Shown: positions 1-3,332, counted from the first letter of the stretch. The stretch: 64,000 bases of DNA from Flavobacteriales bacterium (GCA_044346705.1 JBIIYP010000001.1:148634-212633); one strand, 5' to 3'. Notes: generated by a model from the sequence alone, not told the origin. Numbers and translations are program-made.

Positions 1-135
1 ATTACTACTAAAATCATAACCACAGAAATTGTAAGTCCAATTTTTGATTTTTTCTTTCTTGAGTATATAAACAGTCCAATTCCAATGCTTAAAAAAATTA
101 GCAAAAAAATTAAACCATAAATTAAAATCATTCCC
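1..135 (-). CDS. Partial small membrane protein (N-terminus only; continues beyond window start), putative further cassette ORF
   Basis: Reverse strand ATG at 135-133 gives MGMILIYGLIFLLIFLSIGIGLFIYSRKKKSKIGLTISVVMILVV..., hydrophobic, AT-rich like neighbouring cassette ORFs; truncated by window edge. Confidence 0.3.
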
Positions 136-194
136 ATTTTACTATGTCGTTTTTTGTTAGTTTCTTGTCAGGTGTGTCGTCTGCCAGCATTACT

Positions 195-389
195 GCTAAC
201 GTTTAAGGCTTGCCGCAGGGCTGGTATTTTATAACTGTCCGCCCGGTAACTGAAGCCGATTGAAAAACTGATGATGAAGTTAACAACTAAAAGCCAAATA
301 GAATTCGGTCAAGCTCGTTATTAGCTGATAGAAGTACAACTGATGATTGTTATTCCGTCAGCCAGCCTTGCGGCAAACCTTTTGTTGGC
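195..389. repeat. attC-like imperfect inverted repeat element A (GCTAAC...GTTGGC)
   Basis: Left arm gctaacgtttaaggcttgccgcagggctgg (195-224) pairs with reverse complement of right arm ccagccttgcggcaaaccttttgttggc (362-389), about 85 percent identity; lies directly 3' of the stop of ORF 397-1248; GC-rich relative to flanking AT-rich ORFs. Confidence 0.5.
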
Positions 390-396
390 TGCTGTA

Positions 397-1248
397 TTAT
401 TTATTTATCCATTCTTTGACTGTCGAAGAAATATTTTCTTTTTCACCGTTTTCAATTTTTTTTATTGATTCTTCGACTACCGCAATCCAATAAGTCCAAA
501 TATCACAATGATTTGTACCTTTTTTAAAAGTGTCTGCAAGATTACTTTCTATATTTATTTTGCCAACATTTATGAAGTCGTTGTCAATATTTTTATTTAG
601 TCGTTTATATTTTGCTTCAAAAACTATTTTCCAAAAATATTCTCTAAAATATCCAAGAGAATCAGTATGTCTTGCTGTTAAAACTTTTGATTCTAAAAAG
701 TCCTCAGTTGTAGGAACATTTTTCAAATTAATGTTAGTAGCTAATACATAATTTTCACCTTCTAATGTATCAATTAGCTTTTCAATTACTAAAAATCCAC
801 CATAATTACCATTTTTCATTTTAAATGCTAAACAAGTTCCTTTCTCATAATTACCAGAATAGTACTTAATTTTTTTTCTTGCTTTTGGTTTTTCTTTTTC
901 TGACGATATTGTAAATAGGAATTTGTCAAGTACTTTTTCTCTTTCCCTCAAATCTTTTTCAGTCGCATCTAATTCCTTCCAAACTTTAATGTCAATTTTT
1001 GACTTAATAATCTCCTTTACTTTTTCCAAAGTATTTGAGTCTAATTCTTTACATTCCCAAAGAGCTTTAGCTAAAGCAAACCAATAATCATTTGAAGTCT
1101 GTTCACTATTAATTGTTTCAGCAAAATCAATTTCTAATTGCTTTTTTATGTCGGCAATAGAAGAGTTATGATTATAATAATGAAAGAAAGTTTCATACAC
1201 TTCCATAAAAGTGTCATTCGATGAAATTCCTGTTCCCCAATGTCCCAT
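397..1248 (-). CDS. Hypothetical protein, N-terminal DUF4259-like domain (MGHWGTGxxxND start motif) plus unknown C-terminal domain; cassette ORF
   Basis: 283-aa ORF, AT-rich; N-terminus MGHWGTGISSNDTF resembles the MGxWGxGxFDND signature I associate with DUF4259 immunity-like proteins (from memory, not searched). Confidence 0.55.
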   Translation of the reverse strand: MGHWGTGISSNDTFMEVYETFFHYYNHNSSIADIKKQLEIDFAETINSEQTSNDYWFALAKALWECKELDSNTLEKVKEIIKSKIDIKVWKELDATEKDLREREKVLDKFLFTISSEKEKPKARKKIKYYSGNYEKGTCLAFKMKNGNYGGFLVIEKLIDTLEGENYVLATNINLKNVPTTEDFLESKVLTARHTDSLGYFREYFWKIVFEAKYKRLNKNIDNDFINVGKINIESNLADTFKKGTNHCDIWTYWIAVVEESIKKIENGEKENISSTVKEWINK

Positions 1249-1279
1249 TTTGAAGTATTAAGAGGTTTGTCAATATAGC

Positions 1280-1409
1280 AGCCAACGGTTCGCGCATAAA
1301 CGCCGGTTGGGTTTGGTGACCGAAAGTTATCAGTTCACCATGAAATTTCCAAAGGACCACGAGCTAAAAATTTTCCCCCAAAACCCAACTGGCGATTATG
1401 CGCTGTTAG
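1280..1409. repeat. attC-like imperfect inverted repeat element B (GCCAAC...GTTAGC)
   Basis: Left arm cagccaacggttcgcgcataaacgccggttgggtt vs reverse complement of right arm aacccaactggcgattatgcgctgttagctg; arms differ by a 4-5 nt bulge next to the AAC box; 130 bp; immediately 3' of stop of ORF 1421-2206. Confidence 0.5.
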
Positions 1410-1420
1410 CTGCTGGGTTT

Positions 1421-2206
1421 CTATTTCTTCCAAAGTTCGTCATTGTGATAATCTTGTCTATATGCAATTCCGCAACTACAATCAAATTTATATTTTTTGT
1501 CTGGGAAAAACTTTTTATAAAGTTCAAGTCTAGTTTTTAAATCCACTTCCAATGGGTCTAGTCTATTGTTAAGCCACATTCCAATGACCATAATAGGTTC
1601 GTGTTTAGGTGGTCGCCAACCGTCAAACTCGCAAAATCGTGTATGATAGATAAAATGCATTCCAAGTATTTTTTCAGTCATAAAATTCTTGTCGAGTTCA
1701 GTGTAGTTACTCGATTTGAATTTTTCAATAGAGGCGATTGCTTTCTTGTAGTCTTGTTCAATGCATAAAACTGTCCCAATGCAAAGAACTATAGCCGTTA
1801 AGAAATAAAATCTTGTGAGCTTATTTGTCGGCTTAATTAAATTTTTCCAAATAAGTTGAGCAATGAAAAAGTGTGGTATAAAAGTCACTAAACCAATGCC
1901 TGCAATAATCATAACAAGTCCAAAAAAGTTCATTTGTTCGAGGAAAATAACACAATAGATAAAAACGAAAAGAGTTACTCCATTTATGAAACCTGTCAAA
2001 GGAGTAAATTTTGAATTGTCGAGAATGGGATATAAAATTGTGTTTGCAAAACAAATAGCAAGAACAATAATTGTCCAAGTAGTCGGAATGCAAAACGCCT
2101 GAAAGTATATGTTAAGTAAAATGAGAATTGTGATTAAAACGCCATTCAGAACAGCCAAATTTTTCGGCTTTGAAAAGTGCTGATACGCTTTTTTAATCAT
2201 GTTCAT
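1421..2206 (-). CDS. Hypothetical membrane protein (4 predicted TM helices) with about 110-aa soluble C-terminal domain of unknown function; cassette ORF
   Basis: 261-aa AT-rich ORF; N-terminal hydrophobic segments; C-terminal ...GMHFIYHTRFCEFDGWRPPKHEPIMVIGMW...DCSCGIAYRQDYHNDELWKK not recognised. Confidence 0.55.
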   Translation of the reverse strand: MNMIKKAYQHFSKPKNLAVLNGVLITILILLNIYFQAFCIPTTWTIIVLAICFANTILYPILDNSKFTPLTGFINGVTLFVFIYCVIFLEQMNFFGLVMIIAGIGLVTFIPHFFIAQLIWKNLIKPTNKLTRFYFLTAIVLCIGTVLCIEQDYKKAIASIEKFKSSNYTELDKNFMTEKILGMHFIYHTRFCEFDGWRPPKHEPIMVIGMWLNNRLDPLEVDLKTRLELYKKFFPDKKYKFDCSCGIAYRQDYHNDELWKK

Positions 2207-2280
2207 TTTTGTCAGATTAACTTTGTCTTAACCTTTTTATTGTCCGTTGTCCGTGTCGTGTGTGGTCGTCTAACCTTGCA

Positions 2281-2412
2281 GCTAACGATTTGCATGCTAG
2301 CGATGGCCGCGATACCGAAGCACTGAACTGCAAACCTATTACAAATTTATAAAAGAAATACGAACTTCCAAATTTGCGCTGAACCAGCGGCTATCGCTAG
2401 CATGCTGTTAGC
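2281..2412. repeat. attC-like imperfect inverted repeat element C (GCTAAC...GTTAGC)
   Basis: Left arm gctaacgatttgcatgctagcgatggccgc vs reverse complement of right arm gcggctatcgctagcatgctgttagc; left arm carries extra gattt next to AAC box; 132 bp; immediately 3' of stop of ORF 2426-3190. Confidence 0.5.
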
Positions 2413-2425
2413 GGCTGTTGCCTTT

Positions 2426-3190
2426 CTATTCATAAATTTCATTCCAATCATAAGGTGCTGGATTAGTCAATTTAATGATTGTCTTTTCTCTTTCGTTAAG
2501 TCCATTATAATATTCGCAAAAGAACTTTAAATAATCTTCGCCTTTTCCCATACGCCAAAACAAATCGTATTTGTCAATATTGGGAAACTTATTCCAAGGT
2601 GTTTGTATTGTGTTGTCAAGCGGTTTGAAGTGTCCAAATTCTTTTAAGAATCCTCTTACTTCCATAAGCGCAAAACCTAGAAGATTAAGTCCACGCCAAG
2701 AATAAATATTGTCGATTTCGCTGTCTTCTTGAGAAAGTCCAACACCCCAAATGATGTCAACTGGACTAGCTTCAACTAAAACACTTTCACCAGTTTTTAT
2801 TAAATATTCAGCTATTTCAAGATTTTGATTGAACTTGTGAATGTTTCCAGTCTTGACAATTTCAAATCGTTTGGCGTTCCAAATATGTTCGTCAAAACCT
2901 AAAACTATTTTACCAAGTCCTATTGCTTCCTTGGGTGTCTTTGCAATCAAAATTTTTTCGTATGTTGACTTATCGTTAAATAGCAGTGCTTTTTGAGACA
3001 TCATCCAATGTTCTGAAGTTTTATAGGTCTTGTTTTCAATGGTGAATGGACTTTCAAACCATTGACTAAAACAAAACTTTCCTATTTCATTTTTGTATTT
3101 ATTAGTATGTCCCCAAAAGAAAATGAAATTCAATTCTTCTCCTCTCTCAAAGCTGTCGGTTAACCATTTTAAACTATAATGCTTTGTCAT
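2426..3190 (-). CDS. NADAR (DUF1768/YbiA-like) domain protein with about 90-aa C-terminal extension; cassette ORF
   Basis: FFWGH...FSQWF...EHWMMSQKALLF...VLVEASPVDIIWGVGL motifs typical of NADAR N-glycosidase/ADP-ribose-processing family; AT-rich. Confidence 0.7.
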   Translation of the reverse strand: MTKHYSLKWLTDSFERGEELNFIFFWGHTNKYKNEIGKFCFSQWFESPFTIENKTYKTSEHWMMSQKALLFNDKSTYEKILIAKTPKEAIGLGKIVLGFDEHIWNAKRFEIVKTGNIHKFNQNLEIAEYLIKTGESVLVEASPVDIIWGVGLSQEDSEIDNIYSWRGLNLLGFALMEVRGFLKEFGHFKPLDNTIQTPWNKFPNIDKYDLFWRMGKGEDYLKFFCEYYNGLNEREKTIIKLTNPAPYDWNEIYE

Positions 3191-3224
3191 TTTATTGTAC
3201 TTACTTTCAATTTAGAAATGTCAC

Positions 3225-3265
3225 GTGCAATTGCCGCTAACTGCGGGTTAGCGCATTGCGTCAAT
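3225..3265. repeat. Minimal palindrome gcaattgccGCTAACtgcggGTTAGCgcattgc (attC-core-like or attI-like site) between recombinase 3' end and first cassette
   Basis: Same GCTAAC/GTTAGC boxes as elements A-C but arms adjacent (17-bp core, about 33-bp imperfect hairpin); followed by second palindrome cccacccgattgggtgg at 3295-3311. Confidence 0.45.
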
Positions 3266-3332
3266 TTCCGGACTTGGCTGAGCTTGGTAGTTGCGTAAAG
3301 CCCACCCGATTGGGTGGTAAAGCGCAATAGCC

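Follow-up and report, generated by a model that had tools for sequence, protein, structure and literature searches.

A probable integron-type gene-capture platform with a XerA-like tyrosine recombinase in a Flavobacteriales bacterium

Organization of the locus

The window analysed here, a stretch of 64,000 nt from the genome of a Flavobacteriales bacterium, starts with an AT-rich island: the GC content is 30-36% at positions 1 to 3000 and 57-68% across nearly all of the remaining window, and that of the genome is around 62%. Four co-oriented ORFs are found on the minus strand between positions 1 and 3332, the fourth of which is cut by the window edge, and the gene for a tyrosine recombinase (3333-4508, minus strand) is located just upstream of them in the same orientation. 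A first-pass annotation had described four AT-rich minus-strand ORFs in a GC-rich genome and an adjacent, co-oriented recombinase, and coordinates, strand and composition are as claimed. Three of the four ORFs are followed by an imperfect hairpin (195-389, 1281-1410 and 2281-2412), which starts 8 to 14 nt past the stop codon, begins with ..AAC, ends with GTT.. and has arms of 20 to 23 nt that are 90-95% complementary. All three inverted repeats lie where the annotation had placed them, apart from a shift of the second from 1280-1409 to 1281-1410. A minimal 17-bp palindrome that it had also listed, GCTAACTGCGGGTTAGC, is present at 3236-3252.

The hexamer GCYAAC alone is not enriched in the 64-kb window (62 occurrences versus 64 expected). 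A window-wide scan for paired AAC...GTT hairpins detected the above-mentioned three as the only long ones, together with four weak candidates of 52 to 57 nt, a number that corresponds to the chance expectation. The distinguishing feature is the paired AAC...GTT hairpin architecture and not the hexamer. No T-run follows the stems of the window sites, Rfam gave no match at the gathering threshold for the window, and no IntI is encoded within it.

Cassettes are numbered from the recombinase and all lie on the minus strand. Cassette 1 (2286-3240) consists of an ORF of 254 aa (2426-3190) and the attC-like hairpin site C (2281-2412; 132 nt, arms 95% complementary, dG -29.9, z -5.1 for single-stranded DNA folding against shuffled sequences). 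Its product contains the NADAR domain that had been proposed as cargo (Pfam, 2e-48) and is matched by the PADLOC candidate PDC-M42C (4e-40). On the coding strand, site C reads GCTAAC-A-(19-bp stem)-loop-(stem)-AAATC-GTTAGC. Cassette 2 (1286-2285) carries a multi-pass membrane-like ORF of 261 aa (1421-2206), for which Pfam and domain searches returned no family match, and site B (1281-1410; 130 nt, arms 91% complementary, dG -33, z -6.2). The ORF of cassette 3 (cassette, 200-1285; ORF, 397-1248, 283 aa), whose upstream neighbour switches among contigs, had been labelled a DUF4259 immunity-like protein; this label is not supported by Pfam, which gave no match apart from noise even at E<=1. The cassette ends with site A (195-389), a long-loop variant of 195 nt detected with a Python scan, which has an internal loop of 2 x 4 nt beside the AAC/GTT box (arms 90% complementary, z -2.6). 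Cassette 4 is represented in the window by its start (1-199), which includes the first ~45 codons of an ORF of 184 aa with a start codon near 135-137; the remainder lies past the window edge. The full cassette is found in contig L001 (14312-15066), where the 130-nt site at its end abuts GC-rich chromosomal DNA.

The recombinase and its docking site

The recombinase has 391 aa, matches the Pfam families Phage_int_SAM_4 and Phage_integrase and is composed of an N-terminal beta/alpha domain of ~75 aa, a disordered Pro/Ala linker, a core-binding domain and a catalytic domain. The residues R246, K271/274, H335, R338, H361 and Y370 of the catalytic site are invariant among 35 homologues. Its best HMM match, and the basis for assigning its sequence to the Xer/XerA family, is the NCBIfam model NF040815 (XerA) with a score of 232.8 against a cut-off of 220. 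With the integron integrase profile TIGR02249, it reaches 216 bits, which is below the cut-off of 265, and the match is split into two stretches that break at profile position ~179; residues ~209-246 of VchIntIA have no counterpart. Hence, the IntI-specific insertion is missing, as had been stated in the first-pass annotation. Six further relatives associated with arrays fail TIGR02249 in the same way, and true IntIs from loci L089 and L072 score 442-467 bits in a single stretch. In the AlphaFold2 model (mean pLDDT 81), the N-terminal domain is predicted with a pLDDT of 93-96, and the nearest folds are XerA (PDB 4a8e and 5hxy) and VchIntIA, with 4a8e as the best match. The enzyme is XerA/IntI-like, lacks the IntI-specific insertion and has an extra N-terminal domain. 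It is not a housekeeping recombinase, because the gene is a decayed pseudogene in some strains (L011, L012 and L014, beside the same four-cassette array), and because members of the family are plasmid-borne and present in several copies on some replicons.

The ~97 nt between the stop codon of the recombinase gene and the crossover GTT (3236-3332, minus strand) form an attI-like region, the core of which, GCTAAC-N5-GTTAGC, is the 17-bp palindrome. The crossover is located at or within the minus-strand GTT, with the G at plus coordinate 3241. Among recombinases of 65-75% identity, conservation of the region extends as far as AGTT, straight after which the sequences diverge. Three alternative first cassettes are joined at exactly this GTT behind an identical recombinase, the NADAR cassette 1 being replaced elsewhere by another NADAR cassette or by a DUF4262 cassette. 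Furthermore, the array of contig L015 equals that of L003 with two additional cassettes at the attI-proximal end.

Structure and strand bias of the hairpin sites

The sites follow the consensus RYYAAC-A-(~20-bp stem of free sequence)-loop-(stem)-NNNN-C-GTTRRY, in which AACA...CGTT is invariant, and are 55 to 195 nt long with a sharp peak at 129-131 nt. In 25 sites from diverse Bacteroidota loci, a stem of 19 pairs is 87% paired, with compensatory changes at 18 of the 19 pairs; the covariation score is 0.616, compared to 0.167 for shuffled alignments (0/500) and 0.07-0.14 when the alignment is slid. It has thus been shown that the pairing of the stem is conserved and its sequence is not. Beside the AAC box, 1 nt faces 5 nt, which results in a 4-nt bulge whose position and polarity are conserved family-wide. 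The 4-5-nt asymmetry noticed in the first-pass annotation is therefore real, but the attC-like character ascribed to it is not, since in canonical attCs (L089) the spacers are symmetric and the extrahelical bases are single. Only about half of the sites have complementary outer R-box pairs, and the stems contain two conserved A.C/G.T positions.

The bottom strand, the complement of the coding strand, folds more stably in 72 of 87 sites (p = 2e-9), and G.T wobbles number 59 on this strand versus 10 on the top strand, with two near-invariant positions. Because both wobbles and stability favour the bottom strand, this bias suggests selection on one folded DNA strand rather than on a structure in the sense mRNA. 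R1, a covariance model of the site trained on the 130-nt class, scores the minus strand of site C with 114 bits (plus strand, 17.5) and that of site B with 102.7 bits (plus strand, 23.2). R1 gives no significant score for site A and misses the short sites of 55-82 nt, and the unity of the site family thus rests partly on a hand-made scan.

Cassette turnover and distribution

Metagenome contigs that encode a 100% identical recombinase and attI carry the same modules in at least seven different cassette orders, and every breakpoint, both at attI and at the sites, falls on a GTT. For instance, cassette 2 is a precise unit that is present or absent between L001 and L003, and the cassette that follows site B in L001 is not the one that follows it in L002. 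Likewise, cassette 3 is preceded by cassette 2 in L001, and L003 and L012 have a NADAR2 cassette in that place; the sequences switch exactly at GTTGGC. These orders derive from metagenome assemblies; assembly chimeras are unlikely, though possible, because the junctions share just ~6-10 nt. Transfer between distant hosts is seen for cassette 4, which is 95.5% identical over 786 nt to a cassette in L136, an unrelated contig with ~35% GC and a recombinase of ~41% identity, and the two GTTs mark the limits of the homology. These sequence comparisons show that cassettes come and go and replace one another, with the crossover at or within GTT. Arrays can also be static, because the four-cassette array persists at 99.85% identity beside the recombinase pseudogene of L011, L012 and L014.

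In 1.63 Mb of loci surrounding relatives of the recombinase, R1 yielded 92 matches, nearly all of them downstream on the recombinase strand, and an independent scan found 42 oriented sites per 180 kb downstream compared to 1 per 315 kb upstream. Arrays reach at least 13 R1 sites and contain one co-oriented ORF per interval, which ends 4-50 nt ahead of the site; IS110-family and group II intron insertions are also present in arrays. Within the 64-kb window, R1 recognizes the two 130-nt sites only, and it gave no matches at the true IntI loci examined (L072 and L089). From these searches, the platform is judged to be widespread in Bacteroidota, with culturable carriers such as Winogradskyella ursingii, Aquiflexum sp., Chryseobacterium and Riemerella. 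Dispersal of the repeats in the manner of REP sequences, failure of the hairpins to fold and a fixed syntenic block had been named beforehand as grounds against a cassette platform. The outcomes favour it on all three points: the other 60 kb of the window hold no further copies and the upstream regions of related recombinases almost none, the stems are conserved in structure, and cassette content turns over at the locus.

Proposed mechanism and alternative explanations

Taken together, we consider it very likely that the locus is an integron-type gene-capture platform, which comprises a recombinase, an attI-like docking site and an array of promoterless single-ORF cassettes with hairpin sites. 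Of the two readings put forward in the first-pass annotation, one was a cassette platform that depends on another lineage of tyrosine recombinases, and this reading is borne out by turnover at GTT, precise transfer, stem covariation, directional co-distribution of the sites with the recombinase family, their absence elsewhere in the window and the lack of the IntI insertion. Adjacency and co-distribution suggest that the adjacent recombinase catalyses cassette exchange. The crossover is at GTT and each site therefore contributes its final bases to the next cassette, as in integrons; a cassette begins with the TT of a GTT and ends with the G of the following one. The strand asymmetry suggests the folded bottom strand as the putative substrate, in which AAC/GTT would form one recombinase-binding box, the two near-invariant G.T wobbles would close the helix and the 4-nt pyrimidine-rich bulge on the cleaved arm would mark polarity. 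This bulge may stand in for the single extrahelical bases and the IntI-specific domain of classical integrons; perhaps the N-terminal domain of the family contributes to polarity and strand recognition. New cassettes would enter at attI and could be expressed from a local promoter or by read-through out of the recombinase gene, and the AT-rich cargo is, on this reading, drawn from a cassette pool shared with low-GC Bacteroidota.

The second earlier reading, a CALIN captured by an integrative element, assumes that the sites are ordinary attCs served by a true IntI elsewhere, and that the neighbouring recombinase is the unrelated integrase of the element. The AAC...GTT termini and the GTT crossover are indeed as in attC, arrays also occur beside a dead recombinase and our view is limited to 64 kb of the genome, a stretch without an IntI. 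However, the sites have a 1 x 5-nt asymmetric junction in place of the symmetric spacers and single extrahelical bases of the attCs found beside true IntIs, they lie downstream of this recombinase family at dozens of independent loci and are absent from the examined IntI loci, conservation of the attI-like region extends all the way to the recombinase stop codon and a truncated recombinase copy still accompanies tet(X3). In addition, the IntegronFinder papers report only loner integrases (In0) for Bacteroidetes at first and later a single complete integron, that of Salinibacter ruber (PMC9024848). With sites that differ from canonical attC and travel with the recombinase family, a classical integron remnant is not favoured and appears quite improbable.

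Slightly less improbable, but still unlikely, is a Xer-type system in which duplex DNA recombines at short AAC-N5-GTT cores, as in dif, IMEX or pdif modules, and in which the hairpins are incidental or terminators. XerA is the best HMM match and attI has a palindromic core of the duplex type (6-5-6); in the sites, however, AAC and GTT are 55-195 nt apart, and the stem that joins them covaries and is free in sequence, which a duplex core would not need, and neither the excess of wobbles and stability on the bottom strand nor a bulge of constant position and polarity fits this explanation. REP-like palindromes or intrinsic terminators of an acquired island, which the recombinase merely integrated, would account for the position of the hairpins just past stop codons and for the foreign composition. 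This is highly improbable: the island is not one unit, because individual ORF-hairpin modules come and go, the repeats are confined as described above, the stems lack a T-run and the wobble bias is opposite to the needs of an mRNA hairpin.

Returning to the cassette platform, we further propose with moderate confidence that it represents a sister class of integrons that is distinct, diverged in ancient times and lacks the IntI domain. This class would be the principal means of cassette capture in Bacteroidota, both on chromosomes and on plasmids, and the native source of tet(X) and probably of the aph(3')-IVb, lnu(H) and blaRATA units of Riemerella. Such platforms are likely missed by IntI-based searches and, as predicted, probably by the attC model. 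If this is true, hairpin-site recombination is possible without the domain thought to define integron integrases, and tet(X) and probably the Riemerella resistance units were mobilised from a Bacteroidota cassette platform.

Comparison with known systems

The platform shares with integrons a recombinase, a docking site that adjoins its gene and serves as the preferred cassette entry point, with the newest cassettes next to it, and a polar array of cassettes with one ORF each, most of them promoterless. In the 'inverted' integron group, e.g. in Treponema, intI is also co-oriented with the cassettes. The sites are imperfect palindromes with conserved AAC/GTT cores and structure, otherwise free sequence and a better-folding bottom strand. 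Cassettes consist of ORF and site, have a G|TT crossover and a hybrid 3' end of the site and move as units; the cargo is without assigned function or defence-like, and arrays of both systems carry IS110-family and group II intron insertions. In contrast to integron integrases, the recombinase has an extra N-terminal domain and lacks the additional domain of ~35-40 aa near patch III, an insertion that, as summarised in PMC9668308 and PMC9024848 with reference to Messier & Roy 2001, defines IntI and is necessary for activity. Moreover, the sites peak at 129-131 nt and show a single 4-nt bulge next to the AAC/GTT box as well as two conserved G.T wobbles, whereas attC has a symmetric unpaired R/L-box spacer and two or three single extrahelical bases; the hosts are Bacteroidota, in which classical integrons are nearly absent.

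XerA and XerC-XerD are chromosome-dimer resolvases, and IMEX and the pdif modules of Acinetobacter are Xer-dependent. The platform recombinase resembles Xer proteins in that XerA is its closest neighbour in sequence and fold and in being a simple tyrosine recombinase without a lambda-type arm-binding domain, and the core of attI is similar to a short palindrome of duplex type. It differs in that it is not a housekeeping enzyme acting on a single dif site of ~28 bp; its sites are hairpins of 55-195 nt in cassette arrays.

The aph(3')-IVb unit of Riemerella anatipestifer consists of an ORF, a 5'UTR of 27 bp and an attC-like 3'UTR stem-loop of 140 bp and integrates site-specifically and independently of homology following natural transformation (PMC13148043, 2026). 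That paper, which groups lnu(H) and blaRATA with the mobile resistance units of Riemerella by citation, names no recombinase, attI, arrays or family and regards the mechanism as 'yet to be fully elucidated'. Compared with its published description, the cassettes described here are of the same build, with leaders of 33-75 nt and sites of 130 nt, also occur in Flavobacteriales and, as judged from comparisons, move as units of ORF, leader and stem-loop. By analogy, the Riemerella units lend experimental support from a relative.

Sites of the same family are carried by tet(X)/tet(X2), and R1 assigns 66 bits to a tet(X) site of a Riemerella plasmid. On Acinetobacter plasmids, tet(X3) is part of ISCR2-xerD-tet(X3)-res-ISCR2 units, in which 'xerD' equals delta-tpnF (PMC8635130, PMC7494873). 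This 'xerD' is a C-terminal fragment of 221 aa, 54.8% identical to residues 162-390 of the recombinase, and lies co-oriented and immediately upstream of tet(X3), like the recombinase relative to cassette 1. It is a truncated, presumably inactive member of the family. In contrast to the platform, the tet(X3) unit has a truncated recombinase and a site cut after its 5' half, and its mobility now comes from ISCR2. The tigecycline-resistance gene tet(X) appears to be native to the platform.

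Anatomy of the cassette locus

The left 3.3 kb of the window are compositionally foreign, with a GC content of 30-36% as opposed to 57-68% in nearly all of the remaining window. They carry a NADAR ORF (2426-3190; Pfam 2e-48), two ORFs at 1421-2206 and 397-1248, and a fourth ORF, the 184-aa cassette, which is interrupted by the window edge and has its first codons at 1-137; all are encoded on the minus strand. An imperfect inverted repeat lies behind each of the first three ORFs (2281-2412, 1281-1410 and 195-389, respectively), 8-14 nt past the stop codon. All three repeats start with GCYAAC and end with GTTRGC, their arms of 19-23 nt are 90-95% complementary, and as ssDNA they fold better than shuffled sequences (z = -5.1, -6.2 and -2.6, respectively). 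The first-pass annotation, which had described AT-rich minus-strand ORFs with foldable hairpins at their 3' ends, was thereby confirmed, whereas the DUF4259 cargo that it had named was not supported by family searches. The GCTAAC/GTTAGC-type hexamer alone is not enriched in the window; the paired AAC...GTT architecture is, and a window-wide scan returned the three repeats as the only long AAC...GTT hairpins. Rfam gave no match in the window at the gathering threshold.

A 17-bp palindrome, GCTAAC-TGCGG-GTTAGC (3236-3252), is located between the first ORF and the stop codon of a tyrosine recombinase (3333-4508, minus strand), which has the same orientation as the ORFs; no second recombinase was found in the window. 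Recombinases of 65-75% identity share a conserved region that extends from this stop codon to the crossover GTT, right past which their sequences diverge, and the region therefore fits the expectation for an attI site. An alignment of window positions 3253-3332 (minus strand) contains two direct repeats, T(T/G)ACGCAA, at a distance of about 40 nt, together with a AAGTCCGGAAAT block that is conserved. By analogy with the direct repeats carried by attI1, these are candidate accessory recombinase-binding sites.

Among the cargo, the NADAR protein matches the PADLOC candidate PDC-M42C (4e-40), one cassette contains three genes including PD-T4-9_A and a SecB-like protein, and a 582-aa ATPase has weak N-terminal similarity to LmuB, AriA and PtuA. 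Other cargo comprises DUF4262, VbhA, a DNA methylase (in a relative) and several unknowns.

Directly upstream of the recombinase, an AbiEii toxin (Pfam 2e-26) and an AbiEi-like antitoxin form a pair (4630-6118), which is adjoined by an AT-richer 332-aa membrane ORF (6286-7284, approximately 47% GC). A GC-rich repeat of about 72 nt, which is unrelated to the hairpin sites, is present in four copies of 82-97% identity (4545-4616, 6140-6211, 8070-8106 and 8794-8871) and, if translated from the minus strand, would yield a hydrophobic C-terminal tail (...GLVPVVLLGRLLERKG, then stop). Upstream of the AbiEi/AbiEii pair, a 70-nt fragment (6240-6309) shares 86% identity with codons ~29-50 of the N-terminal domain of the recombinase (4357-4426; tblastn 73% over 22 aa) and could be left over from a second recombinase copy or from a rearrangement.

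A recombinase without the IntI-specific insertion

The recombinase contains SAM-like and catalytic domains according to Pfam, and its catalytic R, K, H, R, H and Y residues are invariant. It was placed relative to IntI and Xer by HMM scores. Among NCBIfam models it matches NF040815, 'XerA / integron integrase', best (232.8 bits against a cut-off of 220), while the integron integrase model TIGR02249 stays below its cut-off (216 bits against 265) and aligns in two pieces that skip the IntI insertion; true IntIs (L089 and L072) pass TIGR02249 with 442-467 bits in one stretch. Among solved structures, archaeal XerA (4a8e) is the best match, and the alignment with V. cholerae IntIA (2a3v) falls into two blocks, with residues ~209-246 of IntIA lacking a counterpart. 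The absence of the insertion, as read from the sequence in the first-pass annotation, thus holds, and six more array-associated relatives gave the same result. In the AlphaFold model (pLDDT 81), an extra N-terminal beta-beta-alpha-beta-beta-alpha-beta domain (residues 10-80, pLDDT 93-96) is followed by a disordered linker and an Xer-like core. By fold, the closest neighbors are XerA and IntIA, and a whole-model Foldseek search returned recombinase cores only.

The hairpin sites form a family with a strand bias

Sites were collected from the window population and from loci of recombinase relatives, which include Winogradskyella, Aquiflexum, a Flavobacteriaceae isolate, Bacteroidales and Saprospiraceae MAGs and many metagenome contigs. 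The scan used AAC/GTT anchors and arm alignment and did not require R-box complementarity, as hybrid sites would otherwise have been missed. On the coding strand, the sites share the architecture RYYAAC-A-[stem]-loop-[stem]-NNNN-C-GTTRRY, in which AACA and CGTT are invariant across the collection, and their length peaks at 129-131 nt. In an alignment of 25 sites, the 19-pair stem is 87% paired with compensatory changes in 18 of the 19 pairs, and the covariation score is 0.616, whereas shuffles reach 0.167 (0/500) and slid partners 0.07-0.14. Only about half of the sites have complementary outer R-box pairs, as expected if the 3' ends are reshuffled by crossover at GTT. An arms-only covariance model with loops replaced by GAAA was discarded: it did not recover its own training sites from genomic DNA, probably as natural loops are longer than its window, and its gapless alignment mixes registers (58% stem pairing), so that the cleaner 25-site alignment was relied on instead. 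The covariance model of the 130-nt class (R1) is escaped by the 195-nt site of the window and by short sites of 55-82 nt, which rest on a Python scan and folding. On a Pontibacter kalidii plasmid (L187, 10735-11620), variants of 55-70 nt occur one per small ORF with the AAC-A...C-GTT ends kept; as R1 misses them, the site family comprises several length classes.

One stem position and the A/C pair flanking AAC/GTT are near-invariant A.C on the coding strand, and both turn into G.T wobbles on the complementary strand. Overall, 59 G.T wobbles are found on the bottom strand and 10 on the top strand, and for 72 of 87 sites the bottom strand folds more stably (p = 2e-9). Purines make up 88% of the four bulged bases on the coding strand, and the bulge is therefore rich in pyrimidines on the bottom strand. 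An mRNA hairpin would require the opposite strand bias.

An alternative is that the repeats are REP-like palindromes, in which case they would be dispersed over unrelated sites. On the minus strand, R1 scored the two window sites of its length class with 114 and 103 bits, and on the plus strand with 17-23 bits; with filters off, it found no further site in the 64 kb, so that the dispersal which would have spoken for this reading did not materialize there. In 163 loci of recombinase relatives (1.63 Mb), which were drawn from the matches listed for very general peptide patterns and under-represent close relatives (three were added by protein look-up), R1 gave 92 matches at E<0.01, nearly all of which lie on the recombinase strand and downstream of the recombinase. 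A separate scan counted 42 oriented sites per 180 kb downstream and 1 per 315 kb upstream. Within the sequence covered, namely the 64 kb and the loci of relatives, the REP-like reading is therefore rejected. The arrays reach at least 13 sites (L122, L142, L109, L130 and L136), and nearly each interval contains one co-oriented ORF ending 4-50 nt ahead of the next site. No R1 match was obtained in the true IntI loci examined (L072 and L089), and hairpins at a betaproteobacterial XerA-like locus (L070) were set aside as unrelated perfect palindromes.

Two departures from the downstream layout were observed. The relative L142 has a second array upstream of its recombinase in the same orientation (5332-9259), whose last site has the appearance of a degenerate terminal site, with GAT in place of GTT at its end. 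Two relatives whose match begins only at residue ~116 (L044, 5960-7786; L047, 941-1078) have sites upstream on the opposite strand, which is the divergent layout of classical integrons; both layouts therefore exist in the family.

Cassette turnover and transfer

Public assemblies were searched with the exact recombinase protein, which yielded many freshwater metagenome contigs. Their arrays differ while the recombinase and the ~97-nt downstream region stay 99-100% identical, and at least seven array orders were found behind this near-identical recombinase. The order of the window is attI, NADAR1, c259, c283, c184, chromosome (cassettes named by ORF length in aa). Other contigs read attI, NADAR1, c259, c582 ...; attI, NADAR2, c283, c184; attI, DUF4262, VbhA ...; attI, DUF4262, c174; or attI, DUF4262, x617, NADAR2, c283, c184. 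Another order, ... c259, c283, c184, c244, three-gene cassette, c225, leads into a different chromosomal flank. Nucleotide-level comparison placed all switches directly past GTT: the docking site ...CTAACCCGCAGTTA continues as GCGGCAA, CCTGCAA or CAAGCAA in different contigs, and one hairpin has two continuations, GTTGGCtgct in one contig and GTTAGCggtc in another. Assembly chimeras could in principle produce such switches but are unlikely, because the joins share only 6-10 nt. Compared at the level of assembled sequence, these junctions demonstrate cassette mobility, and the adjacent recombinase probably catalyzes the exchange.

In three contigs (L011, L012 and L014; e.g. L011, 7480-7960), the same four-cassette array recurs with 99.85% identity next to a recombinase pseudogene of which a decayed C-terminal part is left; the left flank differs and carries an SSF transporter. 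This arrangement is a CALIN-like degenerate state of the system. The 184-aa cassette recurs with 95.5% nucleotide identity over 786 nt in L136, a contig of about 35% GC whose recombinase is only ~41% identical to that of the window, and the homology extends from the GTT of the preceding site to the cassette's own ...AACGTT. Transfer of cassettes between hosts accounts for the AT-rich cargo in a host of 62% GC.

Plasmid-borne copies and tet(X)

Full-length family recombinases, followed by arrays of small co-oriented genes, are present on plasmids of Pontibacter, Persicobacter, Chondrinema, Rufibacter, Chryseobacterium and Fulvitalea. The 'xerD' / delta-tpnF ahead of tet(X3) on Acinetobacter plasmids (221 aa) shares 54.8% identity with recombinase residues 162-390 and is, by its sequence, a truncated family recombinase. 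The tet(X3) start follows ...CTT/GTTATGTGCC, directly after a GTT, and 3' of the gene only the 5' half of a site remains, cut off. Intact tet(X)/tet(X2) genes on Empedobacter, Bacteroides fragilis and Riemerella plasmids have a complete site behind them (R1 55-66 bits), and beyond GTT all three sequences diverge. Genes of the tet(X) family (L184, NZ_CP041297.1, 5028-7165; L188, 1355-1493; L189, 3712-5344; L190, 2289-2427) hence look like cassettes of the system described here.

Discussion

The locus is a genuine cassette platform of integron-like type, in which a non-IntI recombinase is combined with a hairpin site that departs from the canonical form. No description of this recombinase-site system was found in the literature, including the IntegronFinder papers and other integron papers, and an observation in Riemerella alone came close: aph(3')-IVb, flanked by a leader of 27 bp and an attC-like 3'UTR of 140 bp, undergoes site-specific, homology-free integration after natural transformation (PMC13148043, 2026). 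By citation, similar behavior is reported there for lnu(H) and blaRATA; the mechanism was called unresolved and no recombinase was named (PMC13148043). The family described here would provide a candidate enzyme and docking site for this unexplained homology-independent integration of resistance genes. The placement of tet(X), a gene for resistance to the last-resort drug tigecycline, among the cassettes of the system would also explain the 'xerD' linked to tet(X3).

In Bacteroidetes, at first only loner integrases (In0) and later one complete integron, that of Salinibacter ruber, were reported (PMC9024848). Integron censuses demand an IntI with insertion, and almost no complete integrons have been reported in this group, which would instead have its own cassette economy with arrays of at least 13 cassettes and plasmid-borne copies. 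The IntI insertion is held to be defining and necessary for the recombination of folded attC sites; a widespread natural system doing the same job without it would change the definition of an integron and offer a comparative handle on how tyrosine recombinases recognize DNA structure.

Classical integrons are targeted at their attC sites by IS1111-attC elements and group IIC-attC introns. On a Chryseobacterium sp. SNU WT5 plasmid (L186), an IS110-family transposase (13278-14279) and a group II intron reverse transcriptase (15744-17060, on the opposite strand) parallel these insertions, as they lie within the cassette array and adjoin hairpin sites. The same plasmid carries four copies of a near-perfect 146-nt palindrome with CCCAAC...GTTAYM ends (10160-10305, 12255-12400, 14636-14781 and 17705-17862), each directly after attI or after a site, which may be a multiplied mini-cassette without an ORF.

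The attC sites beside a true IntI (L089) show symmetric junctions with single extrahelical bases, whereas the junction of the sites described here opposes 1 nt to 5 nt. AAC, 5 nt and a second box are read on the bottom strand in both the attI core and the folded site, and the exchanged strand would therefore keep its spacing in both recombination partners. The proposed mechanism is single-stranded. The strand bias of the hairpin sites parallels that of integron attC sites, of which the bottom strand is used (PMC2727003 and PMC3458562).
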